Origin: Promethearchaeota archaeon
Lineage (GTDB): Archaea; Asgardarchaeota; Lokiarchaeia; Sigyniarchaeales; SOKP01
Length of the DNA stretch: 64,000 nt
Reading direction: 5' to 3'
NCBI GenBank assembly: GCA_048940925.1
Contig: JBHLOC010000012.1
Coordinates: 38,316 to 102,315 of the forward strand
In this document: in pieces, positions 42,905 through 64,000 of the stretch
How positions within the stretch are numbered: position 1 is the first letter of the stretch
Layout: the number at the start of each line of letters is the position of its first letter
Made by a program: the position numbers and the translations under genes
Notes under the pieces: generated by a model
Databases searched by the model: none
The model's input: the letters and a program-made list of their open reading frames with translations, nothing else
What the model was told of the DNA's origin: nothing

Positions 42905-43261
42905 TTAATTTTGTAATTGGTCTTTTAATCTTTGACAGATATTAGAGATTCTTTTTCCAAGTTCCTCAAATAACGTATCTTTTTCTTCTAATAATCTATT
43001 TTTTTCCTGTAATTGCGTATGAATTTCATGATTAACCGGTTTTGGAGCAAATGAATTATGGTAAAATTGAAATATGCCTTGTAATTGTTCTAATAGATCT
43101 GCACGGAACTCCAATATCTGCCGTTTTACCTCGATAGGTTTACACTGTCCTTTACTGAGACGATCAATACTCTGTCTTAAGTTCTCTAATTCTTCTTCAT
43201 CAAAAATAACCTTTTCTAATGAATTATATAACATTTCATTTTGCGATTTTTGTTTTTCCAT
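42905..43261 (-). CDS. Coiled-coil hypothetical protein, last gene of the membrane operon
   Basis: GGAGG RBS; heptad-rich sequence; 12 nt after the preceding gene. Confidence 0.7.
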   Translation of the reverse strand: MEKQKSQNEMLYNSLEKVIFDEEELENLRQSIDRLSKGQCKPIEVKRQILEFRADLLEQLQGIFQFYHNSFAPKPVNHEIHTQLQEKNRLLEEKDTLFEELGKRISNICQRLKDQLQN

Positions 43262-43273
43262 ATGATTACCTCC

Positions 43274-46200
43274 TTAACTATAAATAAAGTCCTGAATCTC
43301 TTCAAAAAATTGTTTAATTCTATTATATAACTGTGTCGGATCATCCTTTCCAAAGGTAATAATTCTAAAGGAGTCTACATATGCTTGTAATAGTTCCTTA
43401 CGATAGGGAAACTCTTCAAAGCTACTAAGAAGATCGTAAAACATATTTAATTGATTATCTGTAACTAATCCTTCTTCATTATGAAAGTGGGTATACACAT
43501 TAGCTAAATATCTTCTCAAAAAATCATGCTCTATTTTCAATGCTTTCTTATGATTTCCCTTTCGAAGTGCATCCCAGATTAAGTATACCTCATGATAGGA
43601 ATCTGATAACTCACGTTGCAATGCTTTCTTTAGATTCTCTTTCTGGATAATAACTCTTCTGTGCTCGAATGGAGCAGGTGCATCCGCCTCTTTATCCATC
43701 ACTTCAACATTGATCTCTCCGTGAAGTCGTTGTTGAGCCTGATAATAATCTTGTAAAGCTATATTGTATTGTTCTCCGACACGATATGAAGTACGAATGG
43801 ATTGAGAACCACTTGCTTTTCGAGAATGATCTTCTACTAAATAGTGGTGTTTAATAAGAATATCGAGTAATATATCACGTAATTTAGTGATATGCTCTTT
43901 TTTCACTCTTCGCTGTATTGCTTTAGGTGCGATAAATTTTAATAGCTCTTTTTTTAATTTTTCCTTATATAAATTACCTATATTATCTAATTGACTTAAT
44001 GATGAAAGAAAGTCCATAATTTCTTTACGATACCCCATATAATTGCCTAAATCAATCTCAAAGATAGTTTGATGGGCGTGTTCCAAAAGTCTCCTTTCTG
44101 CATCCCTTAAATCATACCCCTGTGTTCTCATAAATGGAACGATTTCTTCATAAGGGAGTGGATGTTTTTTCACAATATCATCATATTCGAGTTGCACTGG
44201 AAACGCTTGATATATATCTTCTCTTTTGATTAAAGCTTTACAATTATTAAGATTCTTAAGATAATCAAGTTGATAGGTATTATTCCGTTTGGAACTGTAA
44301 TAGCCTGTTCCCACCAATTCTTGAAGATTCATCAAGTTTTTTAATAATGAAATGTCTCGATTATCAACTGCTTTAAACACCATGATATTAGGAAAATAGT
44401 TGAATACATTTTGATGTATGCTATGGACTTGATTTGCAGAATATACTACTCCGAATCCATGTTGACGTAAAGATCCTAAGAATTTGTCAATTTTACCATA
44501 ATGAGACTGTGTTGTTATATATCTGGAATCAAAGAATATATCAATACTAGGCATAAATATAATTTTTGGAATATACCCATCATTTGTCGTAATATAATGA
44601 ATGAGTTTGGAGACAATCAAAAATGCAAAGAATAACTGGGTGCTAAATTCATTCGTAATAGAAAGATCTACAATAACAGTTTTATCTGTCTTTATAAAAT
44701 CAGAGGATAGCACCTTGGATGCTGTAGCATTTAAGCATAATATAAGGTCTTCTTGCGTTAAATCAGAAAATACAGATCCTAATGCCATATTTGGTGGTCG
44801 TTTCTCCCAATCGCTTTGTGTTCTTATTTCTAAATTAAGTGAAGGAAGATCCATTTCAGGATTTTTTAATATTGTATTTCTAAACATTTCAATAGTTCGC
44901 TTGTCCTTTCGAAATGCTAATCCATAGACATCAAATAGAAATTCTTGGTATTTGCTATTGCTAAGATCATAAGGAATATCAGATCGTAAGGGATCTAAGC
45001 TGAATGAAGTTCCTAGTTTGAAATAGAGGAGTTCTTTCTCAAATTGGGTACCTTCAAAAAAGGAGATCAGTTTGGACCATCTCCCTGAAAAATCAAATAT
45101 AAGAGAAGGGATTTTGGCTTGGATTAATTCAGCAGCAATTTTCATAGAGGTATGTTCTCTCTCTTCAGATGTCCCATTTACGATGAGAAGCTGTCTTAAC
45201 TGATTTAACGTAAATCCGAAGGGAATTTCTGTTTCTAATATTTCTGTATTGAGTGTATGACCAAGAGTAATGAAATTTTTCAAGTGTAAAGGAGTGTTGA
45301 ATTCTGCCCCTATTCGTGTCTCTACACCTTTCTTATATTCATCAGAAATCTCAACCAACTTATTTAGAGTTTTTCCTTGCAGGATTAAGTATTGTAAGTG
45401 AGTACCACTTAACTTATAGTTATATGTCTTAAGGGTAGAGCATAAATATCCTGAGATTAGTTTACGTTTATGAAGAGGCATAAGCCGTAGTCCATTAAAA
45501 TTGGAGATAAACGCATGAGCAATTGCTTTACTCTTTTCATTAAGCTCATGTTCTAAATGAAGCATGTTTCGTACTCGCACTCGTCTGATATACTTACGAT
45601 TTGAGACTGATAACAGGAGCATAGATTCCCATAGCCCAGAACGCATAGTTGCCCATCGATGTTCTATGCTCGTAATTTCTCTTTTCTTTCTTCTCACCTT
45701 TTTTCTTAAATATTTATCCCATAGATAATAACGAGTAAAATCAAACCAATGTTGCGCTCTTGTATTAAGATGTTTAAAACAGGCTCTTTCAAACCGAGCT
45801 ATACTTATAGGTGTATTACATACCGTATATCCGAATGGAACTTTCTGAATCATTGCCGATTGAGTAAAGCTGTTCGCATGAGCAATGAGAGACGGACAAT
45901 ACTCATCTAAATTATACATTCTAAGATTTACCAGCATTTCATCGTTAATATGAAGAAAAATACTGGTAGGAATTCTGCTTGAAAAGTGGAATTTTATATC
46001 CGAAAATGGGTGTATAACAGTAAAATCTTTATTGTGGAGAAATAAAGTTTGAGAACCATGAAATAATAGCCCTCTCCACCATAGCCATATAATTCCAAAT
46101 ATTATTATAAAATTAATTGGAATAATGTAGAGAAAAAAACCAAGAATAATAAGAAATACATCTAAGTAGAAGATTACTATTGTGATAAAAATGATTTTAA

Positions 46201-47062
46201 ATCCTACTATCGAATTTTTTGGCTTAATAGTCTGTTCAGAAGCTTTAATAGGAATACTTTCTTTAAAGAAAAATGTACGTATACCATTTATTAACTCATC
46301 TCCTGAAAGTAATGTTATTTTGAAGTGATGGAAATTTGACGCAAATAAATTACGAAAGATTGCCTGATATTCGTATATTTTACTCTGTAAAAGATCAATT
46401 TTAAATTGTCGTAGAAACCCACGAATAGAAGAATGAATGCAAAAATAAATATAAGTCTTATAAGATCCCTGTGATCTTGTCTGAGTGCGTTGATTTTCAC
46501 TACTAGAAAGGTGAATCATCGGAATATGAATAACTTGATAAGTAAAGGGAATTAATTTACCGAGATCACTTAAGGTTTTAATATAGGTATTGGTAGTCTC
46601 ATGGACGTTTTCAGGGATAACCTCAATTTTAAACAATTGTATTGCAATATGAGTTAAATCTTCTTTATTCGTAACATAGAGGGTTGGGGTATCCCTTTTT
46701 TTCTGCCAAAATATGAAGTTAGAAAAGGGATTAAACATGAAGGATTTTCGAAAGGTAAATGAAATAAGATTTACGAAATTATAGCATTGGTCATAAAACG
46801 CTACAAGAAAAAACAGTAAGAATAGAACTCCTATGCTTACCGCAATATATAGTGGGATACCAACAAGATATGTAATAACTATAATAGACATTATTAGCAC
46901 TAAAAGGGAGATAGCTCTAATACTTGAAAAAGTGGTATTAATATGCTTAGGTTGAGGAGGTGTCCTCCAAATATTTAGGTAATCTTTATCTATCTCAAAT
47001 TCTACATTTCTCTTTAAGGTATATTTTTTCTTCTGGAATTTAGGCTCTTCTGACTCAATCAT
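43274..47062 (-). CDS. Membrane-bound VirB4/HerA(FtsK)-like protein with degenerate ATPase motifs
   Basis: Two TM hairpins each followed by an alpha/beta domain; ITLG...FGFTLNQLRQLLIVNGTSEEREHT, IPSLIFDFSGRW, LDPL, TVIVDLS, LRQHGFGVVYSANQ. Confidence 0.72.
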   Translation of the reverse strand: MIESEEPKFQKKKYTLKRNVEFEIDKDYLNIWRTPPQPKHINTTFSSIRAISLLVLIMSIIVITYLVGIPLYIAVSIGVLFLLFFLVAFYDQCYNFVNLISFTFRKSFMFNPFSNFIFWQKKRDTPTLYVTNKEDLTHIAIQLFKIEVIPENVHETTNTYIKTLSDLGKLIPFTYQVIHIPMIHLSSSENQRTQTRSQGSYKTYIYFCIHSSIRGFLRQFKIDLLQSKIYEYQAIFRNLFASNFHHFKITLLSGDELINGIRTFFFKESIPIKASEQTIKPKNSIVGFKIIFITIVIFYLDVFLIILGFFLYIIPINFIIIFGIIWLWWRGLLFHGSQTLFLHNKDFTVIHPFSDIKFHFSSRIPTSIFLHINDEMLVNLRMYNLDEYCPSLIAHANSFTQSAMIQKVPFGYTVCNTPISIARFERACFKHLNTRAQHWFDFTRYYLWDKYLRKKVRRKKREITSIEHRWATMRSGLWESMLLLSVSNRKYIRRVRVRNMLHLEHELNEKSKAIAHAFISNFNGLRLMPLHKRKLISGYLCSTLKTYNYKLSGTHLQYLILQGKTLNKLVEISDEYKKGVETRIGAEFNTPLHLKNFITLGHTLNTEILETEIPFGFTLNQLRQLLIVNGTSEEREHTSMKIAAELIQAKIPSLIFDFSGRWSKLISFFEGTQFEKELLYFKLGTSFSLDPLRSDIPYDLSNSKYQEFLFDVYGLAFRKDKRTIEMFRNTILKNPEMDLPSLNLEIRTQSDWEKRPPNMALGSVFSDLTQEDLILCLNATASKVLSSDFIKTDKTVIVDLSITNEFSTQLFFAFLIVSKLIHYITTNDGYIPKIIFMPSIDIFFDSRYITTQSHYGKIDKFLGSLRQHGFGVVYSANQVHSIHQNVFNYFPNIMVFKAVDNRDISLLKNLMNLQELVGTGYYSSKRNNTYQLDYLKNLNNCKALIKREDIYQAFPVQLEYDDIVKKHPLPYEEIVPFMRTQGYDLRDAERRLLEHAHQTIFEIDLGNYMGYRKEIMDFLSSLSQLDNIGNLYKEKLKKELLKFIAPKAIQRRVKKEHITKLRDILLDILIKHHYLVEDHSRKASGSQSIRTSYRVGEQYNIALQDYYQAQQRLHGEINVEVMDKEADAPAPFEHRRVIIQKENLKKALQRELSDSYHEVYLIWDALRKGNHKKALKIEHDFLRRYLANVYTHFHNEEGLVTDNQLNMFYDLLSSFEEFPYRKELLQAYVDSFRIITFGKDDPTQLYNRIKQFFEEIQDFIYS

Positions 47063-47900
47063 GGTTTATATCCTCTGTGGTTCTACTATTTTTCTTATAT
47101 AATATATAGAGTAGGATACAGGGCACAAAACAGATGGGACCCAATAATCCAAACACTCCTATGGTACTCGGTTGCATAATCATTTGTAATAACATTAATA
47201 GACTAAACATGAAGAATAACAACCCTACGCCAAAAACAAAATAAGAAAACATATGAGTCTGAGAACGCTGATAAGAGATATTATCCTTGAGAGTACCCTC
47301 AACGATGATTTTTCTACTTTTATGATTAGTAAGGGTATCTTTCATGGTCTTTAAATGAATTGCAGTTTTTAGGGTATTGGCATCCAGTCTTCTTGTATTT
47401 CCCTTTAACAATTGGGTCTCCTGTTGCTGGATTTTTTGTAATAATAACGGGTGAAGGAGATCATCATTTTTCCTTTTTTTCTGGGCCATCGAGGATAAAA
47501 ATGAAAACAAATTGCCAGGAGTCGTTATTGTAAGATCTTCTACTTGTAGGGTCTCATGCAAATTGGGTATATCTAATTTTAATAATTCAAAATAGTTAGC
47601 AAAGATTGTCTTGATATAATCGAGCGGTACATTACCCTGTGACTTTAAGAATACCTGCTCACATTCTTGTATGGAATAGAGAAGATCATCAGGAAAAATC
47701 TGGATCTTGAGATTCTTTAAGAATACCTCATTTATCATCCTCATATATTCAAAAAGTGTCTCGTGTTTATTCTTATTACAAGCTCTCATTCCTAATTTAA
47801 TCCCAAATTCATTGAGCTTATTATTGGTAAGAATTATCCCAACCCACGCTAATTTCTTATAATTATGGGTTCTCATACAAACTAAGATCAAATTCTTCAA
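47055..47900 (-). CDS. Hypothetical protein, soluble N-terminal domain plus two C-terminal TM helices
   Basis: TTG start; overlaps the next gene by 8 nt; hydrophobic hairpin near the C-terminus. Confidence 0.7.
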   Translation of the reverse strand: MKNLILVCMRTHNYKKLAWVGIILTNNKLNEFGIKLGMRACNKNKHETLFEYMRMINEVFLKNLKIQIFPDDLLYSIQECEQVFLKSQGNVPLDYIKTIFANYFELLKLDIPNLHETLQVEDLTITTPGNLFSFLSSMAQKKRKNDDLLHPLLLQKIQQQETQLLKGNTRRLDANTLKTAIHLKTMKDTLTNHKSRKIIVEGTLKDNISYQRSQTHMFSYFVFGVGLLFFMFSLLMLLQMIMQPSTIGVFGLLGPICFVPCILLYILYKKNSRTTEDINHD

Positions 47901-47911
47901 TTTCGTGGTAT

Positions 47912-48553
47912 TTATGATTTTAACTTCACCTCCTCTTCAGCCAACAATTTATCTAAATCTAAAGGCTCTTGAGCATTCAAGATGGTCTGCTCAACAGTCT
48001 TCTCCTTCTTGTCAAAACGTCGTATCGTTTGATAATGGAAGGAAGCATAGGGAGTGATTAAAACAAAAGCAATAATTTGGGCAATATATCCCGGACCAAT
48101 TGCACAAAAATGAAGAGAATGAGTCTGTAAATCCTCATAATAGGCAAAAGGAAAGTTGAGATCTCTAGGTATAAAAAACAATAAGGGAAATGCAAACAAA
48201 TTGATAAAAATTAAACTCCAGATACATATAGTAATCCAAGAGGAGAATATGATCCTATCGTGATTTTTATCAGTGTCAATATCTCTAAAGAGGACATCAT
48301 AGAAGGCCAAAATAATAATAATAATTGAAATAATTGCAATGAAAAAAGCTTCAGGAATTTCATACTGGTCTGTAAGGATATTGGGTTGTGTGGTGTGAAT
48401 AGACCATCCAAAAACCATGCTGAAATGCCCTGTCACGATTACTTCATGAAAAGCACCATAGATATAAAAGGAATACCAATCTAAGAATAATGATGCTAAG
48501 AATAAAATAAGACCTATGATAAAACACTTCTTAAATGTATCTTTTTGGGTCAT
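47912..48553 (-). CDS. Four-TM membrane protein (claudin-like topology possible)
   Basis: TM1-LDWY, extracellular loop, TM2/TM3, loop, GPGY-TM4, charged tail. Confidence 0.7.
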   Translation of the reverse strand: MTQKDTFKKCFIIGLILFLASLFLDWYSFYIYGAFHEVIVTGHFSMVFGWSIHTTQPNILTDQYEIPEAFFIAIISIIIIILAFYDVLFRDIDTDKNHDRIIFSSWITICIWSLIFINLFAFPLLFFIPRDLNFPFAYYEDLQTHSLHFCAIGPGYIAQIIAFVLITPYASFHYQTIRRFDKKEKTVEQTILNAQEPLDLDKLLAEEEVKLKS

Positions 48554-48556: not shown

Positions 48557-50332
48557 TCACTCATTTAAAAACCTACTATATTTTCGAATAACTTTTTCTT
48601 TGTGGGTTGGTTGCCCTTCAAAAAACTTATCGTTTTGTACGATTTCTCTCAATTTAGATTTGGTATACAAATCTTCAGCATAAGTCTCTTCTATTTTGGA
48701 AATCACTTGAGTCTCAACAGTAGTATCAATACATTCATAGGAAAACTGAGCCATCAGTTCAGCAGAAAGCTGTTCATTAATTAGAATAAGGACTGAATCA
48801 TCTAGAATTTGGCGATAATACGGTAATGATGTCTTATCGAATATCATAGATTTATTTTGTAGATATCTAATATAAATAAAGGTTACTACACCTAAATATA
48901 TCCCAATTAAGCAGTATCCGAATATCGTTATGAAATTTAATAGAAAAAATGTTTGGAAAAGTATGAGAAGGAGAGCCACAAACCCAAAGCTTAGGATTGG
49001 TATAGAAGAATAGCGTATTTTCTCAATAAAATTATCTCGAATCTCATCATATTCAGCTGCTAGATCCTCACTTTCAGAAAACTCTTCTATAAGAGAATAT
49101 TTGCGTTCTAGAAAATCAAGAATTTCAGGGAGTTGAGCTAGTTCGATAACATGAATGTTTGTAGATTTATGATAGGCAAAAGGAATAACTTTATCTAAGA
49201 ACCCAACAGAACCAAGACACACAAGTAAAGGTTCAAGCAGTATTTTATATTGTAAGGGTCCATTTCGATATAATACCTTTTTAAAAAGAATTGATTTCTC
49301 CACCGATATCTCAAGTTTAAGAAAGTTAGTGAGCATCTGAGAGAATTGTCCTGAATTCATCAAATCATTTAGCATAACTTGGCATACTTTAGATAATTTG
49401 GTAAGGTAGGTGGTACAAACTTTCTTTATTGAAGGTTCCTCTTTCTTTACCTCACCCTCATAATCAATATGCGCCTGGGATATTTTTATTTTTCCTGTGA
49501 ATGAACTAAACTTAATAGGAAGTATAAGTAATAATTCCAGCATTTCATTTAATCTGAGCTGCTTTACCGCAATTGCATCAACAGTTGTAAATAGAGTTCC
49601 AGATTTAGGAAGAATATGATAATCTAAGGATTTTAATTCTGAATTTAATCGCGTAAGGAATTCTTGTCTTTCAATTTTTTCTGGGTGAATTACTACTGGT
49701 TTTTTTATTACTTCTTGGATTTTGGGAATGCTTTCTTCTTTAGGAATTTCATAAGTAATAGACTCTTCTTGAACAGGAGGAGTCATCACAGCTTTTATAG
49801 TGGAATTTACTCTATTGGGATGAGGATAGCTTTTTCCTAACTGTGAGATCTTAAATTTCTCTTCAAACCACGGTTTAAGTTCTTTTATATCCTCTACAGG
49901 TTCAACTTCATATTCTCTACCCTCCTTCTCAACAGTATCATAATAATATTCGGGTTCCTCATATTCAATCAAATCCTTTTCATCATGAGCTAGTTCAGAA
50001 TGCTCGGAGGCAGAATACTCATTTAAAGTTTTAAGACTACTAAACGACTTTGCAGCTCCAATAATTTTTTGAGCTGATTTCTCTCCAATCCCCTCAACTT
50101 CAGCTACTTGAGCTATGGTACTATTAGCTATCTTCTCAATCGAATCAAACCCATAGCGAAGAAGTCGCTCAGCAGTAGTTGACCCTACATATTTTAACTT
50201 AGTAATATCATTTTTTGCGGTAGCGCTTGCAATGAAAGCATTATCAATGGGTCTAGTCTCTTTATCCTCTTTTTCGGTTTCACCGTCAGTTAAATCTAAC
50301 GCATTATCAATTATTTTATCATGTTCTGTCAT
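48557..50332 (-). CDS. Membrane-anchored helix-hairpin-helix DNA-binding protein
   Basis: LKYVGSTTAERL and VEGIGEKSAQKI double HhH (RadA-N-like), acidic linker, central alpha/beta domain, two TM helices. Confidence 0.78.
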   Translation of the reverse strand: MTEHDKIIDNALDLTDGETEKEDKETRPIDNAFIASATAKNDITKLKYVGSTTAERLLRYGFDSIEKIANSTIAQVAEVEGIGEKSAQKIIGAAKSFSSLKTLNEYSASEHSELAHDEKDLIEYEEPEYYYDTVEKEGREYEVEPVEDIKELKPWFEEKFKISQLGKSYPHPNRVNSTIKAVMTPPVQEESITYEIPKEESIPKIQEVIKKPVVIHPEKIERQEFLTRLNSELKSLDYHILPKSGTLFTTVDAIAVKQLRLNEMLELLLILPIKFSSFTGKIKISQAHIDYEGEVKKEEPSIKKVCTTYLTKLSKVCQVMLNDLMNSGQFSQMLTNFLKLEISVEKSILFKKVLYRNGPLQYKILLEPLLVCLGSVGFLDKVIPFAYHKSTNIHVIELAQLPEILDFLERKYSLIEEFSESEDLAAEYDEIRDNFIEKIRYSSIPILSFGFVALLLILFQTFFLLNFITIFGYCLIGIYLGVVTFIYIRYLQNKSMIFDKTSLPYYRQILDDSVLILINEQLSAELMAQFSYECIDTTVETQVISKIEETYAEDLYTKSKLREIVQNDKFFEGQPTHKEKVIRKYSRFLNE

Positions 50333-54668: not shown

Positions 54669-56800
54669 TATATTTCCTCTTTTTGAGTGTCCAATATATT
54701 TTTAACAATAAACGAAAGTTCTTCTTCATTATCGATACAAATGACATGAAGCTGATTATCCTTTCCAAATCTTATAAGTCTTTCTCGAAGCACCCGTTTC
54801 TCGCCTTCGAGTTCTTCTTTGAAAGTAATGAAATCAAAAACGATAATTAATAATTCACATAACTCTTGGAAATCGTTTAATTCAGAGATAAAGGTTGGAT
54901 CAGCTATTTTATCAGGGGGATAGATTTGAATTAACACTTTATTTAATAAAATAATATGAAGATCTGAATCAGTAATTTCATAATGAAGATAATTCTGTTC
55001 TAATTGCTTTCGTAATCCATATTTCATTGAAAGATGTGAACTTATTTTGACCTCTGCATCTTTAATACCTTCCTCTTTAGGATGTAAAAAAGCTCGAAGA
55101 TTTGACTGTCTCTGCCTTGTATTCTCTCTTCTTATTTCTCGAGGAACCAACTCAGTGCTTTTCATTTCTGATACTGACTCAATGTCCACAAGAGGAAATT
55201 CATAGTGTTCACGTTCCTGTGTAGGTTGTCTCAGAGTAAAGTTCATTCTCTTAAGCTTATTTAATGCAATTCTCAGGTATATCTCATCATGAGTGTTCTT
55301 GCAATATAAGATTATCACTCGACCTTGTCGATGTCGTGCAGTCCGTCCTTTACGTTGAATAAGCCTAATTTCAGATGCCACTACATCATAGAATATTACT
55401 AAATCACATTCCGCAATATCCAGACCTTCTTCTCCCACATTAGTGCTTACTAAGACGTTATATTCTCCCTCTCTAAATTGATCTAGAATCTCGATTTGTT
55501 GTTTTTGGGATAAACCTTTATCATCCGTAGACTTAGTTGCTTGTCCTACAAATCGTACCGCATGAATCCTATTCGTATCCTTAAGCTTATTTACAATATT
55601 TTTAACAGAATCCCGAAGTTTTACAAAAACTAGAATTCGGGAAATAGGATTAGTTCTCAACTCATCTAAAATTACTTTAACCAACACTTGATATTTGGGA
55701 TGAATTAAGTTATCAGGGGTAAAATCATGATTTTTCTTAAGCTCCAAGAATAGTTGATTTAATCTATAATCCCCTGTTAATACTCGTACTGCTTTGGAAC
55801 TATTTTTCTTTTTAGCATCTTTATACATTTTCTCAAGATAATGTAATAGTACATCAAGTCCCTGCTGTTCAATTAATTCTTGCATATGGAACAATATTAA
55901 TCCTTGGGCATTAATAGATAAGGCGCTATATACTCCAATTGTATCCCCATTCTTTAAAGCAGCAATTAGTTCACTATTGAGTCGCAATAGATCTTTTCTA
56001 ATAATATGAGCATATAATGGTTCTCCCTTAATTTCCAAAAAATTAAGCTGAGAAAGATATTGTAAGCGTTCTTCTAATACGCTGTTAAGCAATTCATATG
56101 CATGACTCATTAATTCAGTTAAATTTACTCCGATTTTATACACATCCATTGGTTTGAGATAAGTTTTCACATCTCTATCTTTTCGGGTTCGAATATGGAT
56201 ATTCTCCTGAGAAATAAATAGATTTTTACACAGCATATTGATTTTTTGCTTTGATGCTCCTGGAGATGCTGTCAACCCTAAAATGGTTCCATCGGGATTT
56301 TGTTCTACAAATTTCTCTGCTATCATGGTATAGGGATAGTCTCCTGATGCATGATGAGCCTCATCAAAAATAATAAGAGCAGTAGTTTCAAGTGTATATT
56401 TGTTATGTATTAAATCGTTTCGTAAGGTTTGAGGAGTGTAAAAAATGATTTGAGAATTATTAAATATTTCTGCTCGATCTTGGGGGTTAACTTTCCCAGT
56501 AAGCACTACAAAGGTATCTTCAGGAAGAGTGAGGAACTTCATAAATGTGTCATAGTGCTGATTAATTAAAGGTCTGGTGGGAGCAAGGACAATTATTTTG
56601 CTCTGGGGCGGGTATGTTTGTAATATTCTACTTGCCACTAGCACTGCGATTATAGTCTTTCCTAATCCTGTTGGTAGCACTACTAAGGAGTTTTTTAATA
56701 TACATTTATTGGCAATTTCGGTCTGATATTTTCGTATTTCAAGGTCTCTTCCCTTTACTAAAGAAGCCGAATTAGTAGAATTTGTCTTAAGTGCCCCCAT
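54668..56800 (-). CDS. hef: Hef/FANCM(Mph1)-like SF2 helicase with degenerate ERCC4-like C-terminal domain
   Basis: RKYQ, LPTGLGKT, PTRPL, DEAHHA, TASPG, FVGQA, GEEGLDI, QRKGRTAR. Confidence 0.9.
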   Translation of the reverse strand: MGALKTNSTNSASLVKGRDLEIRKYQTEIANKCILKNSLVVLPTGLGKTIIAVLVASRILQTYPPQSKIIVLAPTRPLINQHYDTFMKFLTLPEDTFVVLTGKVNPQDRAEIFNNSQIIFYTPQTLRNDLIHNKYTLETTALIIFDEAHHASGDYPYTMIAEKFVEQNPDGTILGLTASPGASKQKINMLCKNLFISQENIHIRTRKDRDVKTYLKPMDVYKIGVNLTELMSHAYELLNSVLEERLQYLSQLNFLEIKGEPLYAHIIRKDLLRLNSELIAALKNGDTIGVYSALSINAQGLILFHMQELIEQQGLDVLLHYLEKMYKDAKKKNSSKAVRVLTGDYRLNQLFLELKKNHDFTPDNLIHPKYQVLVKVILDELRTNPISRILVFVKLRDSVKNIVNKLKDTNRIHAVRFVGQATKSTDDKGLSQKQQIEILDQFREGEYNVLVSTNVGEEGLDIAECDLVIFYDVVASEIRLIQRKGRTARHRQGRVIILYCKNTHDEIYLRIALNKLKRMNFTLRQPTQEREHYEFPLVDIESVSEMKSTELVPREIRRENTRQRQSNLRAFLHPKEEGIKDAEVKISSHLSMKYGLRKQLEQNYLHYEITDSDLHIILLNKVLIQIYPPDKIADPTFISELNDFQELCELLIIVFDFITFKEELEGEKRVLRERLIRFGKDNQLHVICIDNEEELSFIVKNILDTQKEEI

Positions 56801-57407
56801 TCGCTTCCACTCTAACTATATAATTCTCAATAATAAATTCACTAATCGCCTTATTACTCTTATTATATGAAATAAGCATATCTCCAATTTTTTGTCCTAT
56901 ATCAGAGAGATACACTAAGTTATTTTGAGCAATAATAAAAAGAAGTGGATGAGTTTCGAGTAATATATTAAGTTTTTGAGTGAGTGGGCTGGACTGTAAG
57001 ATGTTAAATCCTTTACCCTTATGGACTACTTTAAACCAGTAATAGATATCATTTAGCACTTTTATTTGGGTGGAAGTAAACTTAATTATAATTGGCTCTT
57101 TTATTTGCTTTTGAACAATCATATAGAGTTGATTCCCTTCCCTTTTTCTAAGTAGTTTATAGTCCTTAAAGATGGTATGAAACATATTTTGGTATTCTAC
57201 AATAAGAGAGATTAGCTCATTGATATCTGTTGAGCTAACTTGTAAGTATTGTGCAAATTTAGTGATATTAAATTTTTTATTATAATTGTTCTTGAATCGG
57301 CTTAAGATGTCTAACATATTCCGTAATAAATTAATTGTCTTCTTGATATATTTACCAATCTGACTAGTAAGTTCCAGAGACTGTGAATCGAAACTCATCA
57401 AGATCAC
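56787..57407 (-). CDS. Hypothetical protein, possible tandem winged-helix
   Basis: FNITKFAQYLQVSSTDINELI HTH-like segment; YLSDIGQKI wing; overlaps hef. Confidence 0.55.
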   Translation of the reverse strand: MILMSFDSQSLELTSQIGKYIKKTINLLRNMLDILSRFKNNYNKKFNITKFAQYLQVSSTDINELISLIVEYQNMFHTIFKDYKLLRKREGNQLYMIVQKQIKEPIIIKFTSTQIKVLNDIYYWFKVVHKGKGFNILQSSPLTQKLNILLETHPLLFIIAQNNLVYLSDIGQKIGDMLISYNKSNKAISEFIIENYIVRVEANGGT

Positions 57408-57442: not shown

Positions 57443-60382
57443 TTATCGTTTCTTTAGTTTTTTAGTTTTCACGGTAGTAATTACTATGACACTTCCAGGA
57501 ATGATAGTCAAAATGGTGATAACGGGAATAGTTTGAAGGAGTTCATTCTTATAATTGAGATTAGGTTTATCAAGAGGATCATCTGGGACCTCATTTTCAG
57601 GTATGATCTCTCCTTTATAGAAAGTATAGTTCCCAAGAAACATCCATTCGTTAGTTATTCCATCTGTAAGATAAATCCCGAAAGTATAAGACGAGTCAAG
57701 ATTAACCTCATAGTTCAGAGAAAAGATTGAATAATTCTCGTGGTCGTGCCTATAGAAATATTCTGTATCCAAAAATCCATATTCCCAATATACTGACGCA
57801 TAAGCTGAGCCGAATGATATGTTATGATCTTTTAGGCTTGTTCGATAGGTACCATTAATTTCAAGATATACAGAACTATTTATCGCATCAGTTTTTAAAG
57901 AATAATTTATAGCGTACTCGGTATAGATAGTAATATTCTTTTCACTAATCTTTCTAAATCCTTCATATGCTTCTAATCTCATAGGTATTTCAGGATAATA
58001 ATTCCTATCTATTGGTACATATACTTCTTTTGTGAACTCATTACCTTCTACTCTATCAAACAAAATCGTACCTAAATCCTTATGGATACATTTTAAGGTG
58101 ATATATGTGCCATAATCATCAATGATGAGATTCTGAACATTTGCAGTAAAAGGAATATACTCGCCTAACGGTATAGTTTCAGGATAATCCACATTGATAA
58201 TCACATCACTATTCTGTGCCAAATCGCATATCCAATGTAAAATTGCATGATCCATTCTATTATGGGTAGGAGTCAAATAAAATTCACATAGTTCTTCTGA
58301 ATATATCGCTTTCATCAAATTTTGGATAGAAATTGAATTAAATTCTATATCGAGATCAAGTATTTGGACGATTTTGTAAGAAAAATAAATATTCTTGATA
58401 TTAGTATAATCCAGATGATCTAAAACATAATTCTCAATCTTTTGGGTATTTTTACTAAATAAGTTCAATGCTTTAAGGGCATAAATCATATAATAGGTGT
58501 GTTCTAAAATATCTTCTACCTTCGAAGTATATCCGGGATCAAGATAAAGATAATTTGTAGATTCTACTATCTTTCTATCAATAAAGCAATACAAAGCATT
58601 TGTATCGAAGGGGAGTTGACTAAGCTCACCTAATCCGAGGAACTGTGCCAATAATTCCAAATTTCGAACCGCATAATATGTATTTAGGAAGAATACATTC
58701 TTGCTTAAATACTCAGAGAACGTCGGATTATAAGGTTCCCAATAAGTAAATCCCCCAAAACTGTTATAATATGAATCATTGAGAAATTGAGAAGCAATAA
58801 TATCATTTAATAATTCGTTTAAATCATAGCTTTGCCCAAAGTCATCAAGTTTAAACATATTCTGTAAGGAAGTGAGGGCGTGAAAAGTTGCTTTATGAGA
58901 AATAAGCACGTTAACATCATCCACATAGTTCTTATATCCTATAGTATAGAATTCATAGGGACGTGATCGAAAGCCGATAAATGATTTACCTCCTGCAATA
59001 TATTCTACAAATCGACATGAACCTGTAGTATAATATGAAGAGATAATATCATTATAAAGTTGAGAAATATCGAGATCTGAAAGTCTATCATATAATTTAT
59101 ACGAAGAGACAATACTATGGATTAAATCCATACTCATATAATCCCTAGATAAAGGAGTAAATCCATCATAACTATAATAGTTTGAGATAGCACTACTGAT
59201 TTGAGTTTTGTCATCTTCATCTAATCGCGAAATCTCACCCGTATTATTTAACACCCGTATAATCTGAAATATATCTATGAGTTCGTGATAATCAAGTAAA
59301 GTGGAAGAATCCCAGGTTCCCCATGAATTGCGATTGTTAAGTAGAAATGCAATCACATTTTCACGGTTGATATTCGGATCATTAGTAATATCAGAGAGCT
59401 CCAGTCCAAGTGCAGTCGCTACGATATTCGCATATTCTATGCCAAAATCCATCTGTGATATTCGAAAATAATAAGTGGTAGAATCATATAATCCATCTAA
59501 AAAGGAGTAGAAGTTAGGCTCACTAATGCTTCCTTGCATACCAAATAGTTCCAATGTCTTGATACAATAATATGAACTGAGCATATTAGGTTCAAAAAGA
59601 GGACTAAGGCTATCAAAGGAGCTATTTAGATCATTAAGAAATCCACCTACCATCCAACCTGCTCCTTGAGATATTTGTAACTCATTTACATATTGGATAA
59701 TCTGATCCCTTTCAGCAGTATATAATGTCCAATCATCCATTAGAAGATCTAATGCATAAACCGCAAAAAAAGTATTATCCATAGTTGAAATTTTGAATCC
59801 TTCTTCTAAGGTTTGTTCATATTTTTGCCCGATAAATCCCGAAGTATCGGTATCATAGCAGTCCCAAATATATGAAATCATCTTCGAAGTATCAATTAAG
59901 TTAAGGGAGTTTAATAAATCTAATGACATTATCCCATAGCAATTAACTTCCAATTGCGTATTTAAGGGATAATATACTTGATTGAAGTCAGTATCAAGAT
60001 ACCTATAGGCATACTTATCCATGAATAAATTCATATCACCATCATAATAAGACATAATATGGTTGAGGACTTCAGTGCCATTTATATCCTCTAACTTCCC
60101 AATAGCATCTAATATATACAAACCATAATAGGTTGCTTGAATTGAAGAATCAAACATTTGTGTGTAATACCCATCATCTTGATATTGACGAATCTTTTGG
60201 GAAAAGATTTCTTGGAGTATCTCCCCATTACTCTTCGAGGAATGTCCGAGATGGGTATGATCCAACTTGTTATAAGGTAAAAACTCAACTTTAGCACCGC
60301 TTCTAGGGAAGATATACATTATTGAACCTGCAAATACAAACATGAAAAATAGAATAGTACTTAACTTTTTTCTTTTCATCAT
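57443..60382 (-). CDS. Large surface protein with prenyltransferase/squalene-cyclase-like (alpha/alpha) repeats and C-terminal TM anchor
   Basis: Signal peptide; repeated TY(Y/F)(A/G)-x3-L-x2-L and GGF motifs; beta-rich C-terminal region; TM plus KKLKKR. Confidence 0.7.
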   Translation of the reverse strand: MMKRKKLSTILFFMFVFAGSIMYIFPRSGAKVEFLPYNKLDHTHLGHSSKSNGEILQEIFSQKIRQYQDDGYYTQMFDSSIQATYYGLYILDAIGKLEDINGTEVLNHIMSYYDGDMNLFMDKYAYRYLDTDFNQVYYPLNTQLEVNCYGIMSLDLLNSLNLIDTSKMISYIWDCYDTDTSGFIGQKYEQTLEEGFKISTMDNTFFAVYALDLLMDDWTLYTAERDQIIQYVNELQISQGAGWMVGGFLNDLNSSFDSLSPLFEPNMLSSYYCIKTLELFGMQGSISEPNFYSFLDGLYDSTTYYFRISQMDFGIEYANIVATALGLELSDITNDPNINRENVIAFLLNNRNSWGTWDSSTLLDYHELIDIFQIIRVLNNTGEISRLDEDDKTQISSAISNYYSYDGFTPLSRDYMSMDLIHSIVSSYKLYDRLSDLDISQLYNDIISSYYTTGSCRFVEYIAGGKSFIGFRSRPYEFYTIGYKNYVDDVNVLISHKATFHALTSLQNMFKLDDFGQSYDLNELLNDIIASQFLNDSYYNSFGGFTYWEPYNPTFSEYLSKNVFFLNTYYAVRNLELLAQFLGLGELSQLPFDTNALYCFIDRKIVESTNYLYLDPGYTSKVEDILEHTYYMIYALKALNLFSKNTQKIENYVLDHLDYTNIKNIYFSYKIVQILDLDIEFNSISIQNLMKAIYSEELCEFYLTPTHNRMDHAILHWICDLAQNSDVIINVDYPETIPLGEYIPFTANVQNLIIDDYGTYITLKCIHKDLGTILFDRVEGNEFTKEVYVPIDRNYYPEIPMRLEAYEGFRKISEKNITIYTEYAINYSLKTDAINSSVYLEINGTYRTSLKDHNISFGSAYASVYWEYGFLDTEYFYRHDHENYSIFSLNYEVNLDSSYTFGIYLTDGITNEWMFLGNYTFYKGEIIPENEVPDDPLDKPNLNYKNELLQTIPVITILTIIPGSVIVITTVKTKKLKKR

Positions 60383-60537: not shown

Positions 60538-61767
60538 TCAGCACTTAAAGGGCGGACCTTTGCCTTTTGAATATGTCCTGAAAAGCATATTAAACTGTGG
60601 AAGTTTTACGATGTCATCTTTCTCACACTGATTGAACTTTTGATATGGCTTATAAATGTTCAGTTTGGCAAGAATTAAGTTATTATCCTCATCTTTTAAA
60701 GCAAAGAGATAAAAATCAATTGAATCATTATTATTAAAGACTTTCTTTGCATGTCCAGGTATAATTTTAACAATATCACTAGTCTCTTCTGGACTTTCAA
60801 ATATACCTAACCTTTTCATAATGTCTACTAATAAATCAGAAGATTTTACTAAACTTTTAAATCTCTTCACATTAAATCGCTCAAAAAAATTACTTTTTAC
60901 TTGAACTTGAATAGTACTCATCCGTATATTAAGTAATTTACAAATAGAATTCACATTTAATGTATCCTTATAACAACACAACGCTGAAATTGAAGCACAT
61001 AACCCAGCGACAACATCATCTTTAGTATTTTTAATGATATCCCATAACTTGTATAAAATTTTTCTAGTGAAGAGCCCAAATGATCTATCTAAATTAAATT
61101 CAGCTTGTATATAACTTATTTTTTGAAGAATAACCATTTGTCGATTATATTCGTTATATTTTGGAAGAAAATTCCTCATCTGCAATTTAAAATGGTTAAA
61201 CTCCTTTTTCGATATTTCACTGTTATTTATGAAATCAGTCTCCGCTCGTGAAATATTTCTTAATTTTAAACAATAGTATGTAACAACTGGAACTAATTTT
61301 TCAACACTTCGATATTTAGTTCCTGGTCTAAAACTATTATATACTTTCACACATTTGTTAAATATGTACTGTTTTAACGAAGCTCCAGAATCATTTAAGT
61401 TAAGTTTGGTGAAGAGATCAGAGATCTTTTTCCAAATATTACGTTTAACTACTCTAGAGTTATCCTGTTCCAAATTTCTCTTATTTAATCGTCTAAACTT
61501 GGTAGAGTTTGGAAAATTCAAACGTTCATGGAGGGTTCCTACTTGAGTTGCTCCTATCCGTGGTGAAATTTGAATGATATCATCATTATAGGGGCGGTTG
61601 TATTGCAATTTTTTGATCTCAAGCACTATACCACAATTTCTACATACATAAGACCCTCTATCTTCAACTATATCCTCCGAATCACATAAATCACATTTTA
61701 AAGTTTCAAATCCGAATAATCTAGCCTCAAATTCCTGTGTTTTATACGAAGCCATTACCTTGATCAC
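60538..61767 (-). CDS. tfb: Divergent transcription factor B (TFB/TFIIB) paralog
   Basis: Zn ribbon CDLC-x13-CRNCG, two cyclin-like repeats, ICKLLNIRMSTI HTH, C-terminal extension ending GKGPP. Confidence 0.8.
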   Translation of the reverse strand: MIKVMASYKTQEFEARLFGFETLKCDLCDSEDIVEDRGSYVCRNCGIVLEIKKLQYNRPYNDDIIQISPRIGATQVGTLHERLNFPNSTKFRRLNKRNLEQDNSRVVKRNIWKKISDLFTKLNLNDSGASLKQYIFNKCVKVYNSFRPGTKYRSVEKLVPVVTYYCLKLRNISRAETDFINNSEISKKEFNHFKLQMRNFLPKYNEYNRQMVILQKISYIQAEFNLDRSFGLFTRKILYKLWDIIKNTKDDVVAGLCASISALCCYKDTLNVNSICKLLNIRMSTIQVQVKSNFFERFNVKRFKSLVKSSDLLVDIMKRLGIFESPEETSDIVKIIPGHAKKVFNNNDSIDFYLFALKDEDNNLILAKLNIYKPYQKFNQCEKDDIVKLPQFNMLFRTYSKGKGPPFKC

Positions 61768-62239: not shown

Positions 62240-62995
62240 ATGTTTGAAAATGTGCTAGTCTATACTTTCTTTTGGTTACCAATAGCATTTCTGGTTGGGT
62301 ATTTTTTTGAGAAAATGATCTACCACAGGAGTAAAGGTGGATATAGGACAATGTTTAATGTACTTGCTATTATTGGTGTGGCGGTTCATGAAATAGCTCA
62401 TGCACTCCTAAGTCTTATTACTAGGGTCCCAATTGAAAGAATCGAAGTGAATTATAGGGATAAGGAGACCCGTAAAGTATCACCTCATGGATTAGTTGCT
62501 CATAAGAGGCCAAATAAAGTCTCATTTATTCAATCATTCTTAATCGGCATCGCCCCTTTACTAGTAGGGGTAATACTATTTTTCTTCTTATTAGATATCG
62601 CATGTGATATGTCAGCAGCACCACTATATCGTATTCTGGCGGGATGTTTTTGTGTATCTCTATGTTTCGGAATAAGACCCTCTTCGCAGGATCTTAAGCT
62701 TATTGGGAGAAATTTTCGCAGTAATCCTTCAAAATCACTATTTCAACTTATTCTGTTATGTTCTTCTTTTGGATTGGTATGGTTGTTAGTAGATATATTT
62801 ATGATTAACTTGAATTTCGAGTTTTTATATTACATCATGATCGGTATCGTATTTATGGTATTGAAATATTTCTGTCTGTTATGGTATACAATTTATAAGC
62901 ACATAAGAAGAAATCGACAAGATAAGAAAACAGGAGTATTATACGGTGAAATTATGGAAATAAGTACTCCAAAGTATAAATTTTCAGGTGAATAA
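62240..62995 (+). CDS. Membrane HExxH metallopeptidase (M50-like/zincin)
   Basis: GVAVHEIAH in a TM segment, IGIAPL, PSSQD third-ligand motif. Confidence 0.78.
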   Translation: MFENVLVYTFFWLPIAFLVGYFFEKMIYHRSKGGYRTMFNVLAIIGVAVHEIAHALLSLITRVPIERIEVNYRDKETRKVSPHGLVAHKRPNKVSFIQSFLIGIAPLLVGVILFFFLLDIACDMSAAPLYRILAGCFCVSLCFGIRPSSQDLKLIGRNFRSNPSKSLFQLILLCSSFGLVWLLVDIFMINLNFEFLYYIMIGIVFMVLKYFCLLWYTIYKHIRRNRQDKKTGVLYGEIMEISTPKYKFSGE

Positions 62996-63344
62996 GATGG
63001 TAAAAATATTTTGTTATTTCATATTGATTGTGGCATTTGTATTATTCTATCAAAGAAATCCTGTATTTGGGGTTATCTTGATTATTCTATTTCTTGTAGT
63101 TTTTATAGTGTTCAAATTGAGAAAACATGGGGTTGGTTCTAATGCACTTGGGTATTTTAGCAATAACTCTGCTAGGATAAATTCTCAGAGTAGAGAGATC
63201 CTAACTCTATTAATGCTTCAGAGTCTATTTAATGATATTAATTCAGCAAAAGTAAGTGAAAAGGAAGATAAGAGTGTCTCCCCGCATGAAAAGGAGATAA
63301 ATAAACTAAAGGAAGAGATTCTTGAATTATTGGATGGGAAATAA
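62988..63344 (+). CDS. Small membrane protein (N-terminal TM hairpin plus helical tail)
   Basis: Overlaps the peptidase stop and abuts the RadB-like start. Confidence 0.7.
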   Translation: MNKMVKIFCYFILIVAFVLFYQRNPVFGVILIILFLVVFIVFKLRKHGVGSNALGYFSNNSARINSQSREILTLLMLQSLFNDINSAKVSEKEDKSVSPHEKEINKLKEEILELLDGK

Positions 63345-64000
63345 ATGATTTCAGTATCTACGATATTAGATGACTTATTTTCTCTTCTTTCTCATTACAC
63401 TATAGTAAATATTTCTGGAGAATCAGGTACAGGTAAGACAACATTAGCCCTTTATTTAGGAGGTAATTTCCTTACTTCAAAAAAACCATATCAACATTCG
63501 TGTATCTGGATTCAAGCTAGTGAAATATTCCCAAAAAGACGATTAATCTCACTGTTTAGCTCAAACGATGAAGATCTAGATTATTTAAGCAACAATATAT
63601 ATATAATTCCAGAAGGAAGGATTTTAAAATCGTTTTCCGAACAAGGACAGACACTTCGAAAATTAATAAATTCCGACTTAGTGTTACCCCCTAACCTAAA
63701 ATTTATAGTCATAGACAATATTTCTCATCATCTGCGATTTGAGTTATCTACTCTTTCAGAAGTAAGAGATATTACCAATACGATTGACTATTTTTTTGAT
63801 GAGACACTAATGCCACTGCTATTATTTTGTAAAAGAAAAAACATTTATCTAATATTACTTCATGAGGTATCGTTTGATATGAATGCAGGCCAGCAAAAAC
63901 CATTTCTTCAAAACCTTTATAGCAGATTAAATGTGCTGCATATAAATCTATCAAAAATTTTCAATAATAAGAAAAAAAAGATGAAAATCACTTCTGAAAG
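63345..64000 (+). CDS. radB: RecA-family ATPase, RadB/Rad51-paralog-like (runs off the window end; missing from the ORF track)
   Basis: ATG 63345; ISGESGTGKTT Walker A, WIQASEIFPKRRL, FIVIDNISHHLR Walker B; no N-terminal HhH; frame open to 64000. Confidence 0.8.
   Translation, partial: MISVSTILDDLFSLLSHYTIVNISGESGTGKTTLALYLGGNFLTSKKPYQHSCIWIQASEIFPKRRLISLFSSNDEDLDYLSNNIYIIPEGRILKSFSEQGQTLRKLINSDLVLPPNLKFIVIDNISHHLRFELSTLSEVRDITNTIDYFFDETLMPLLLFCKRKNIYLILLHEVSFDMNAGQQKPFLQNLYSRLNVLHINLSKIFNNKKKKMKITSE

Follow-up and report, generated by a model that had tools for sequence, protein, structure and literature searches.

A membrane operon with a predicted VirB4/HerA-type pseudo-ATPase lies beside Hel308-type and other recombination genes in Asgard archaea

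The DNA analyzed here, referred to as the window, is a 64,000-nt stretch from a Promethearchaeota archaeon (GCA_048940925.1; contig JBHLOC010000012.1). It covers bases 38316-102315 of a 102-kb contig, which ends at window base 64000, in an assembly of 4.8 Mb. We describe a locus at 42905-64000 in which a membrane operon, built around a predicted pseudo-ATPase of 1262 amino acids (aa), adjoins a Hel308-type helicase operon and further recombination genes. A first-pass annotation had listed these genes, noted their tight packing, and proposed a chromosomal machine for DNA acquisition or exchange; the open reading frames (ORFs) and their spacing show the gene list and the packing to be essentially right. 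The genes form four tight operons, in which adjacent genes overlap by up to 19 bp or are separated by up to 35 bp. The helicase operon (operon 2) is transcribed divergently from the membrane operon (operon 1), and a gene resembling transcription factor B (TFB) lies 155 bp upstream of operon 3, divergent from operon 4, which is incomplete because it meets the contig end. Throughout, statements on folds refer to predicted models and topologies are deduced from hydropathy. GTDB family and genus labels (f1, f7, f19, and so on) denote anonymous groups, f1 being the family of the source genome. The membrane operon consists of five genes on the minus strand, given here in order of transcription, with gaps of 3, 11, -8, and 12 bp:

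48557-50332, minus strand: 591-aa helix-hairpin-helix (HhH) membrane protein (Pfam HHH_5, E=9e-13; transmembrane [TM] hairpin)
47912-48553, minus strand: 213-aa protein with four predicted TM helices (hydropathy)
47055-47900, minus strand: 281-aa protein with a soluble helical N-terminal part and a C-terminal TM hairpin (hydropathy)
43274-47062, minus strand: 1262-aa predicted pseudo-ATPase (degenerate VirB4/HerA-type P-loop domain in an AlphaFold2 model)
42905-43261, minus strand: 118-aa helical, coiled-coil-like protein, last in the operon after a 12-bp gap

In the 1262-aa protein, two successive units of a TM hairpin plus a ~190-aa domain precede the P-loop domain of VirB4/HerA type (about residues 585-975), which is followed by a winged-helix region and then a helical tail. 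Neither Pfam and NCBIfam (at E<=0.01) nor PHROG gave a match, and a 30-sequence profile run against the PDB by sequence returned chance matches only. It has 169 homologues (E<=0.001), of which the best 120 share 38-80% identity, are mostly ~1270 aa long, and are all annotated as "hypothetical." By NCBI label, these are mostly from Promethearchaeota, with a few from Thor-, Hermod-, Hod-, or Odinarchaeota.

Fold comparisons were made with an AlphaFold2 model of residues 335-1262 (mean predicted local distance difference test score [pLDDT] 75). Foldseek matched this model to HerA (E=3e-11) and TrwK/VirB4 (E=1e-10), and also to SIR2-HerA and DUF4297-HerA. The top matches in VIA-align, which span model residues 250-640 (protein residues ~585-975), reached Z 21-25 with root-mean-square deviations (rmsd) of 3.9-4.8 Å over ~330 residues:

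DndH C-domain: Z 25.1
VirB4 (4ag5): Z 24.8, rmsd 3.9 Å over 330 residues
HerA (4d2i): Z 24.1
TrwB: Z 21
FtsK (weaker, below the top matches): Z 14.4

The domain N-terminal to the P-loop domain was aligned by full-length VirB4/TrwK only, with poor rmsd. Language-model features (ESM Atlas) likewise pointed to DUF87, HerA_C, and TrwB (TrwB_AAD_bind). Because the top VIA rows are tied, the fold is of the FtsK-HerA/VirB4 type and cannot be assigned to VirB4 over HerA. The protein thus has a predicted VirB4/HerA-type fold; the first-pass annotation had called it VirB4/HerA-like, and the model indeed matches both VirB4 and HerA.

The nucleotide-binding motifs are lost. In this family, NG-x4-R-[ED] stands in place of Walker A (G630 is invariant and R635 almost invariant), and P-x-[IV]-D in place of Walker B. 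All 30 of the aligned homologues have a degenerate P-loop (NG-x4-R-E, as in NGTSEERE), and so do distant split forms (GGSQDER, GGTDEER). Since both motifs are degenerate in all homologues, we read the 1262-aa protein as a pseudo-ATPase that has lost its nucleotide-hydrolysis motifs, an assignment made from sequence. After the P-loop domain, the model contains the helix-helix-helix-strand-strand unit typical of a winged helix, and this region in one distant homologue gives a weak PadR/HTH_34 match. A complex prediction between pseudo-ATPase residues 584-1110 and the C-terminal half of the Hel308-type helicase scored 0.00, which speaks neither for nor against binding.

Between one and three additional copies of the big protein are present in some genomes. 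Paralogues that stand apart from the operon occur at C37:36238-37152 in the source genome G000 (L007 11248-12153), L005 9481-13852, and L009 192-6058. The source-genome copy begins after the TM part, is preceded by a 248-aa protein with no family match, and is cut by its contig end. In two other genomes, the paralogue comes after a Cdc48 N-domain protein that stands alone (CDC48_N, E=2e-18); in one of the two, a TPR protein is encoded in between. A 1302-aa gene in the Thor-labelled locus L005 was considered as a second copy and rejected, as tblastn of the window protein against L005 matched the 1283-aa gene only.

The 591-aa protein has the order (HhH)2, acidic linker, conserved domain of ~200 residues, TM hairpin, and helical domain, and it ends in a conserved Y-S-x-F-L-E-D tail; its AlphaFold2 model has a pLDDT of 80. 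The HHH_5 match together with the TM hairpin agrees with the HhH membrane protein of the first-pass annotation. Its central domain gave no significant match in the PDB by Foldseek or VIA, the VIA list being filled by the TM helical hairpin, and in the ESM Atlas its shape matched NERD, UPF0102, and Mrr_cat (TM-score 0.47-0.57, normalised by hit), all of which are PD-(D/E)XK nuclease folds. Conserved in this domain are D252 ... P272-x-K, where a proline occupies the position of a catalytic acid. This gives modest support for a degenerate PD-(D/E)XK-like fold, probably an inactive nuclease. There is no signal peptide, ~440 soluble residues precede the TM hairpin, and positive charges flank the hairpin on both sides. 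Given that no signal peptide precedes it and that it lies N-terminal to the hairpin, the HhH domain is probably cytoplasmic, as are, probably, the other DNA-binding parts. One orthologue (L010 5614-7962; G049 C46) carries a Zc3h12a-type NYN ribonuclease insert in the acidic linker (E=1.8e-17).

The 213-aa protein with four TM helices has no Pfam, NCBIfam, or PHROG match, matches unnamed archaeal clusters only in the ESM Atlas, and has syntenic homologues at 23-37% identity. The 281-aa protein, with two TM helices, has no known-family match in Pfam or NCBIfam, and its syntenic homologues share 24-46% identity. These are the two membrane proteins noted in the first reading of the sequence. At the position of the 118-aa coiled-coil-like gene, loci L002 and L003 have a gene of 112-143 aa.

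The divergent operon 2 has three genes on the plus strand, with gaps of -19 and 5 bp:

50593-50970, plus strand: small Cys/His-rich protein, conserved over ~85-100 aa, whose gene overlaps that of the helicase by 19 bp (translational coupling)
50952-53513, plus strand: 853-aa Hel308-type Ski2-like helicase with a SWIM finger (DEAD, Helicase_C, Helicase_dom4_arc)
53519-53803, plus strand: 94-aa conserved small protein after a 5-bp gap (homologues at 45-77% identity in the same place)

The 853-aa helicase (hereafter Hel308-SWIM) lies below the cut-offs of the Hel308 equivalog profiles (NF002654, 414 vs. 887 bits; NF040935, 339 vs. 1200 bits) and matches them in the helicase core only. It carries a SWIM-type signature, CxC-x19-CxH (C586, C588, C608, and H610), whose Cys and His residues are invariant in 11 homologues, one of them from f15. 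The small Cys/His-rich protein has homologues of 36-74% identity upstream of the helicase in L002, L003, L010, and L012.

Families differ in what other Hel308 they keep. In f7 and f19, a canonical Hel308 is encoded elsewhere in the genome (822-906 bits, full length), and the cluster copy is a distinct paralogue (342-369 bits); in these families, the cluster copy is therefore a specialised extra. In contrast to f7 and f19, no canonical Hel308 (>800 bits to NF002654) was found in any of six f1 genomes (G000, G008, G083, G113, G147, and G207), five of which are given as 99-100% complete. In all six, the cluster copy is the best Hel308 match (311-336 bits in six-frame searches), and another Ski2-like gene scores 141-150 bits. 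This suggests that the SWIM paralogue is the one Hel308-type helicase on which f1 depends. The notion of a mere spare paralogue was rejected, and the "Hel308 paralog" of the first-pass annotation needs qualifying: the copy is a separate paralogue in f7 and f19, whereas in f1 no canonical Hel308 was found.

The membrane and helicase operons belong together across f1. Regions around homologues in GTDB representative genomes were compared with all window proteins, and the order pseudo-ATPase, 281-aa, 213-aa, and HhH genes, followed by the divergent small protein and Hel308-SWIM, was found in 12/12 f1-type loci with enough sequence. The remaining modules of the window (the DUF1922, Hef-like, 206-aa, 979-aa, and TFB-like genes of operon 3 and the HExxH, 118-aa, and RadB-like genes of operon 4) recur whole or in part where the fetched sequence reaches them, with local rearrangements; examples are G008, G049, G057, G113, G083, G109, and NCBI locus L003. 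The synteny spans at least five genera of f1, so the genes are not scattered in relatives. Conservation across the f1 loci is highest for the helicase (57-76% identity) and the Hef-like protein (52-63%) and lower for the pseudo-ATPase (32-46%) and the HhH protein (23-33%). Altogether, the locus is present in 20 of the 25 f1 genomes sampled, with conserved flanks.

Next to the membrane operon, at window positions 37318-42724, are genes for a 426-aa acetyltransferase-like protein and three proteins with no family match (389, 399, and 279 aa). These four also adjoin the operon in L002 and L003 (44-71% identity, in a different order), and in two other genomes the acetyltransferase-like gene has moved between the Hel308 and Hef modules.

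Beyond f1, a single-protein query recovered the pseudo-ATPase in 13 of 15 f1 genomes and in none elsewhere among 121. Confinement to one family was overturned by profile searches: a profile built on the split form found the pseudo-ATPase family in 134 of the 301 Asgard genomes searched. Its layout differs between families:

Split: ~290 aa (TM hairpin plus N-domain) and ~512-533 aa (P-loop plus winged helix-turn-helix [wHTH]), in f19, f15, f12, f9, and f8
Fused: ~785 aa, in f7 (55 of 76 genomes)
Duplicated hairpin plus N-domain unit: ~1270 aa, in f1
Long: ~1415 aa, in f16

A Hel308-type gene is a recurrent neighbor. In all ten f7 loci examined (eight genera) and one f26 locus, it lies on the same strand within ~100 bp of the pseudo-ATPase gene, and a RadA-like gene is ~5 kb off. 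In f19, the gene order is Hel308-type, RadA (332 bits, above the cut-off), an anchored M28-like protein of 882 aa, a three-TM protein, and the 293-aa and 512-aa pseudo-ATPase halves. A Hel308-type gene is also found within a few kb of the pseudo-ATPase in f8, f9, f12, and f15, together with RadA in f8. A Hef-like gene is nearby in one f12 locus and in f16, and a RadA-like gene in f10. In total, Hel308-type adjacency was seen in eight of the 14 Asgard families sampled, and most families without it were limited by short contigs. With 2-7 Hel308-family hits in a genome of 3-4 Mb, we estimate the chance of one falling within 10 kb at a few percent; the adjacency tally carries no P-value, as related genomes do not count as independent. 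The link between membrane module and recombination proposed in the first-pass annotation is therefore stronger than claimed there, with Hel308-type genes beside the module in eight of the 14 families and RadA or RadA-like genes nearby in several.

Membrane proteins also recur around the gene in other families. Small TM proteins share the f19 operon and are found again near the pseudo-ATPase in f12 and f6. An anchored Peptidase_M28-like protein of ~880 aa is encoded near pseudo-ATPase genes in f19 and f12 (L038 5290-8383, L061 4915-8008, and L062 13338-14849) and recurs near the gene in f6. In f19, this protein and the three-TM protein lie between the RadA and pseudo-ATPase genes. The M28-like protein is a parallel to the unrelated 979-aa anchored protein of the window.

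The rest of the locus consists of operons 3 and 4. Operon 3, with the TFB-like gene upstream, is on the minus strand (gaps of 155, 35, -14, and -1 bp, in order of transcription), and operon 4 is on the plus strand (gaps of -8 and 0 bp):

60538-61767, minus strand: 409-aa divergent TFB/TFIIB-like protein (syntenic in six loci)
57443-60382, minus strand: 979-aa protein with N- and C-terminal hydrophobic anchors (alpha-alpha toroid, prenyltransferase-type, repeat; syntenic homologues at 31-44% identity)
56787-57407, minus strand: 206-aa protein with no family match (14-bp overlap with the Hef-like gene; homologues at 26-39% identity in six loci)
54668-56800, minus strand: 710-aa Hef/FANCM-type helicase with no XPF nuclease domain (NF010337, 572 bits)
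54138-54668, minus strand: 176-aa DUF1922 zinc-ribbon protein, coupled to the Hef-like helicase (DUF1922, E=1.3e-7; syntenic in seven loci)
62240-62995, plus strand: 251-aa multi-TM protein with an HEIAH motif (motif, hydropathy; syntenic in L023, L024, and L025)
62988-63344, plus strand: 118-aa protein with an N-terminal TM hairpin (hydropathy; syntenic in L023 and L024)
63345-64000, plus strand: RecA-superfamily (RadB/KaiC-like) P-loop ATPase, cut by the contig end (ORF 63345-63998; Walker A GESGTGKT; AAA_22 and KaiC matches)

The Hef-like protein scores 572 bits against a cut-off of 610 for NF010337 and covers profile positions 6-588 of 781 only. A full Hef with the XPF nuclease is encoded on contig C40 (784 bits, profile positions 49-780) and matches Xpf. 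Judging by these matches, the 710-aa protein is a nuclease-less Hef paralogue; the Hef/FANCM helicase listed in the first-pass annotation is thus right for the helicase part, but the XPF nuclease domain is missing. The zinc-ribbon protein and the divergent TFB named there are also recognisable, the first from its DUF1922 match and the second as TFB-like. For the latter, the TFIIB zinc ribbon gives E=2e-5 (under the Pfam cut-off) and the family profile matches the first cyclin repeat of TFIIB (E=7e-5); the second cyclin repeat and the B-reader were not detected. The 979-aa protein, with hydrophobic segments at both ends, is probably a surface protein, as had been suggested. A wHTH call for the 206-aa protein went unconfirmed.

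Two assignments in operon 4 stand in part. The first-pass annotation had a membrane HExxH peptidase here, and the multi-TM protein does have the HEIAH motif, but neither a peptidase family nor any other family was matched above threshold, and an intramembrane metallopeptidase is possible. The RadB/Rad51 paralog has a RecA-superfamily P-loop, which alone is secure; its RadB assignment is weak, since TIGR02237 (cut-off 172.4 bits) gives the truncated gene 40.7 bits and an uncut homologue of 234 aa from L024 45.7 bits.

Between operons 1 and 2 lies one further feature of the locus:

50446-50531, no strand assigned: ~85-nt repeated element in the divergent intergenic region, within a stable stem-loop region at 50456-50574

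This element has five copies in the genome (77-91% identity), the others being at G000 C46:8430-8514, C68:5817-5903, C51:25846-25909, and C51:22512-22575. Both arms of its long closing stem vary between copies while complementarity is kept, and the fold has a z-score of -4.65. No Rfam family was found in 40000-64000, the element included. We regard it as a candidate for an undescribed small RNA or miniature repeat, and the 69-aa ORF that lies over it (50435-50644) is probably not a gene. Elsewhere in the window, on the minus strand, are a 666-aa rhamnogalacturonan lyase family 11 protein (24362-26362; RGL11_C, E=1e-89), a type of pectin-degrading enzyme that we had not expected in an Asgard archaeon, and a 436-aa FG-GAP repeat protein (31705-33015).

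The context of the locus is that of a chromosome. G+C is even along the window (0.28-0.34), and the window holds no tRNA gene. As the first-pass annotation had reported, there is no integrase, relaxase, or capsid gene, none being found in Pfam, NCBIfam, and PHROG scans of the window proteins, and there was no phage-family or specific defense-family signal in PHROGs and PADLOC. With no mobile-element signature, even G+C, and conserved flanks, the evidence supports a chromosomal locus that is not a mobile element, as proposed at the outset, and a vertically inherited Asgard module is its best explanation.

Going by the predicted models, the membrane scaffold of this module is best explained as a derivative of the VirB3/VirB4 (or HerA) branch of FtsK-HerA ATPases. 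The function that we favor, tentatively and with somewhat less than even confidence, is that of a scaffold derived from a type IV secretion system (T4SS) and coupled to Hel308-led recombination, with intake or exchange of DNA followed by its recombination. At the cytoplasmic side of the membrane, the pseudo-ATPase would assemble into a ring-shaped platform, and there it and the HhH protein would hold DNA. Motor activity would come from Hel308-SWIM, a 3'-5' translocase that would replace the dead P-loop, and the DNA would then be handed to RadA/RadB-type proteins and the Hef-like helicase for recombination. Such a function would be akin to that of Ced and Ted, or to ComFA-driven uptake in bacteria. 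The genes, the predicted fold, the degenerate motifs, and the conserved linkage are what the analysis shows; we infer the formation of a complex, the binding of DNA, the direction in which it would move, and its source. DNA intake or exchange is favored because anchored extracellular proteins and small membrane proteins accompany the module across families, and because VirB4-derived importers with nearby repair genes exist in archaea (Ced and Ted; PMC9905601).

Several points weigh against DNA intake or exchange. The locus has no active motor ATPase, and a motor of the Ced/Ted type is not a role that the pseudo-ATPase can fill; no polytopic channel of the VirB6, CedA, or ComEC kind and no pilin were recognised at the locus. 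The large soluble domains encoded by the operon lack signal peptides and flank TM hairpins, and so are probably cytoplasmic, which would fit handling of the cell's own DNA equally well. The f1 cluster helicase, as the sole Hel308-type helicase found, may simply be a housekeeping repair helicase. The synteny within one family partly reflects shared ancestry, and the fold assignments depend on predicted models. Of the acquisition or exchange machine in the first-pass annotation, what stands is a chromosomal, syntenic, recombination-linked locus; it has no active motor, no channel or pilin was recognised, and its HhH domain is probably cytoplasmic.

The strongest alternative, which we think somewhat unlikely, is a membrane-tethered hub for repair or chromosome handling that acts on the cell's own DNA (broken ends, stalled forks, or unsegregated chromosomes), with nothing crossing the envelope. 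Here, the pseudo-ATPase and HhH protein would hold DNA at the membrane or division site, and Hel308, the Hef paralogue, and the RecA-type protein would process it. Hel308 and Hef are helicases of fork and junction repair, the only Hel308-type gene found in f1 is the highly conserved cluster copy (57-76%), and a bona fide RadA shares the operon in f19. The probably cytoplasmic soluble domains, with their TM hairpins and no signal peptides, are as expected for such a hub, and the order of parts is FtsK/SpoIIIE-like, with the FtsK motor matching the model at Z 14.4. However, the fold is nearer to VirB4, HerA, and TrwB (Z 21-25) than to FtsK (Z 14), and f7 and f19 keep a canonical Hel308 elsewhere, which makes their cluster copy a specialised extra. 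Own-DNA handling also leaves unexplained the retained anchored extracellular proteins (979 aa, and the M28-like 882-aa protein in f19, f12, and f6) and small membrane proteins.

It is improbable that the two halves of the locus are unrelated neighbors, i.e., a membrane complex with no role in DNA (for example, in protein secretion or envelope assembly on a dead VirB4-like scaffold) beside housekeeping repair genes. Much of the synteny evidence does come from related genomes, and the 426-aa acetyltransferase-like gene and the 389- and 399-aa flanking genes are conserved nearby too. Yet a Hel308-type gene adjoins the pseudo-ATPase in eight of the 14 families despite differing gene orders and pseudo-ATPase forms, at intervals of ~100 bp on the same strand and in operons shared with RadA, where chance adjacency would be a few percent. 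In addition, the operon's proteins themselves carry (HhH)2, a nuclease-like fold, a wHTH, and, in one homologue, an NYN insertion.

Finally, an integrated conjugative or viral element, or an anti-virus defense island assembled from HerA-type and helicase parts, is highly improbable: HerA-family ATPases and Hel308-like helicases do occur in defense systems, the helicase has a PADLOC HamB-type match (E=3e-45), the structural matches include SIR2-HerA and DUF4297-HerA, and the big protein has up to three additional copies (one to three) in some genomes, but searches of the window turned up neither an integrase, relaxase, or capsid gene nor a tRNA target, and base composition does not shift. The PADLOC matches (HamB, Cas3, and BrxH) are to generic helicase cores with no SIR2 or HamA-type nuclease effector, the ATPase motifs that HerA-type defense motors need are absent, the locus sits between conserved flanks in 20/25 sampled f1 genomes, and PHROGs and PADLOC gave nothing specific for the membrane proteins.

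Returning to DNA exchange, its boldest form, which we consider doubtful, is that the locus is the local version of an undescribed, Asgard-wide apparatus in which a secretion-type (VirB3/VirB4-derived) ring without an ATPase of its own would be the dock for Hel308-SWIM. This motor would pull in DNA from the surroundings or a partner cell and pass it on to a second set of RadA/RadB proteins. If true, the lineage that gave rise to eukaryotes would have a gene-exchange machine coupled to recombination, which would bear on the origin of sex-like recombination. More generally, the module is a testable candidate for DNA exchange or membrane-coupled genome maintenance in the Asgard lineage. It represents a widely conserved tie between a membrane complex of secretion ancestry and Hel308, RadA-type, and Hef/FANCM-type proteins, in which a motor ATPase appears to have been kept for very long as an inactive scaffold with an unrelated helicase as its constant partner. 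Cultured Lokiarchaeia exist, and tests of expression, localisation, and interaction are feasible if they carry the module.

Compared by defining features, the locus belongs to none of the Ced/Ted, T4SS, HerA-NurA, FtsK, and competence machineries: for each of them, such a feature was missing or could not be demonstrated. Literature searches that combined Asgard with HerA, VirB4, Hel308, RadA, or recombination found no paper describing the module. A 2025 paper notes that some Asgard lineages have a second clade of RadA, and a term search in it showed no discussion of gene context (PMC12722695); a 2026 Hel308 review mentions Asgard archaea in passing only (PMC13623763).

Competence systems (ComEA/ComEC/ComFA) resemble the locus in having an HhH membrane protein, a helicase of superfamily 2 (SF2) type as a possible pulling motor, and a link to the RecA family. 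However, the HhH domain here is probably cytoplasmic and has no signal peptide, unlike that of ComEA, there is no ComEC-like channel, and the homology is limited to generic HhH and helicase folds. FtsK/SpoIIIE shares the N-terminal TM segments, the FtsK-HerA domain, and a winged helix at the C-terminus, which in FtsK is the gamma domain. However, the model superposes less well on FtsK (Z 14.4), Pfam gave no FtsK_SpoIIIE match, and the P-loop is dead. HerA has the same P-loop fold (Z 21-24 to 4d2i, 9x1m, and 8yhx) and a link to recombination genes. In contrast to HerA, the protein here is membrane anchored and has degenerate ATPase motifs. The alignments begin after the N-terminal HAS barrel of HerA; no NurA was noticed in the cluster in general family scans, and a separate SF2 helicase is the likely motor.

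Ced (in Sulfolobales) and Ted (in Thermoproteales) are DNA-import systems that derive from domesticated T4SSs, and Ted loci carry repair genes (HerA and Rad50) beside the VirB4 homologue (PMC9905601). In Sulfolobus, ced and ups are induced in a damage response that is reported to depend on the TFB paralogue TFB3 (PMC6101591). In both Ced/Ted and the present case, a chromosomal archaeal locus encodes a VirB4/HerA-fold protein with small two-TM and multi-TM proteins, and the divergent TFB-like gene in the cluster recalls TFB3. The differences are substantial. To power translocation, an ATPase of the CedB/TedB kind would need intact Walker A and B motifs, whereas the P-loop here is degenerate in every homologue, so the VirB4-like protein cannot be a motor of the Ced/Ted type. 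Hel308-SWIM is a constant partner here and is missing from Ced and Ted, and no part of the locus has sequence similarity to any Ced/Ted component. No VirB6-like CedA/TedA channel (6-7 TM) was recognised in family scans and the ESM Atlas, which did not include a comparison with CedA/TedA profiles; the only multi-TM proteins at the locus are the 213-aa four-TM and 251-aa HExxH proteins, which have no family matches. Likewise, no VirB2-like pilin (CedA1/TedC) was recognised, and neither of the two-TM proteins (281 and 118 aa) is pilin-sized with a family match.

The nearest architectural relative of the locus is the VirB3-VirB4 inner-membrane unit (TrwM/TrwK of R388, 8rtd and 7o42; VirB4, 4ag5). 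Unlike VirB4, the pseudo-ATPase does not match the Pfam VirB4 families (CagE_TrbE_VirB and AAA_10), has lost Walker A and B, and bears an extra winged helix and helical tail; unlike a T4SS, the locus has no recognisable VirB6, B8, B9, B10, B11, D4, or relaxase. The VirB4-type P-loop fold is present but not specific to VirB4, as its superposition on 4ag5 (Z 24.8) ties with those on the DndH C-domain (25.1) and HerA (24.1). The likeness extends beyond that domain: full-length TrwK aligns the preceding domain too, and the order of a TM hairpin and then an N-domain before the P-loop domain is that of VirB3-VirB4 fusions. In other Asgard families, the hairpin and N-domain form a separate gene, just as VirB3 does together with part of VirB4.

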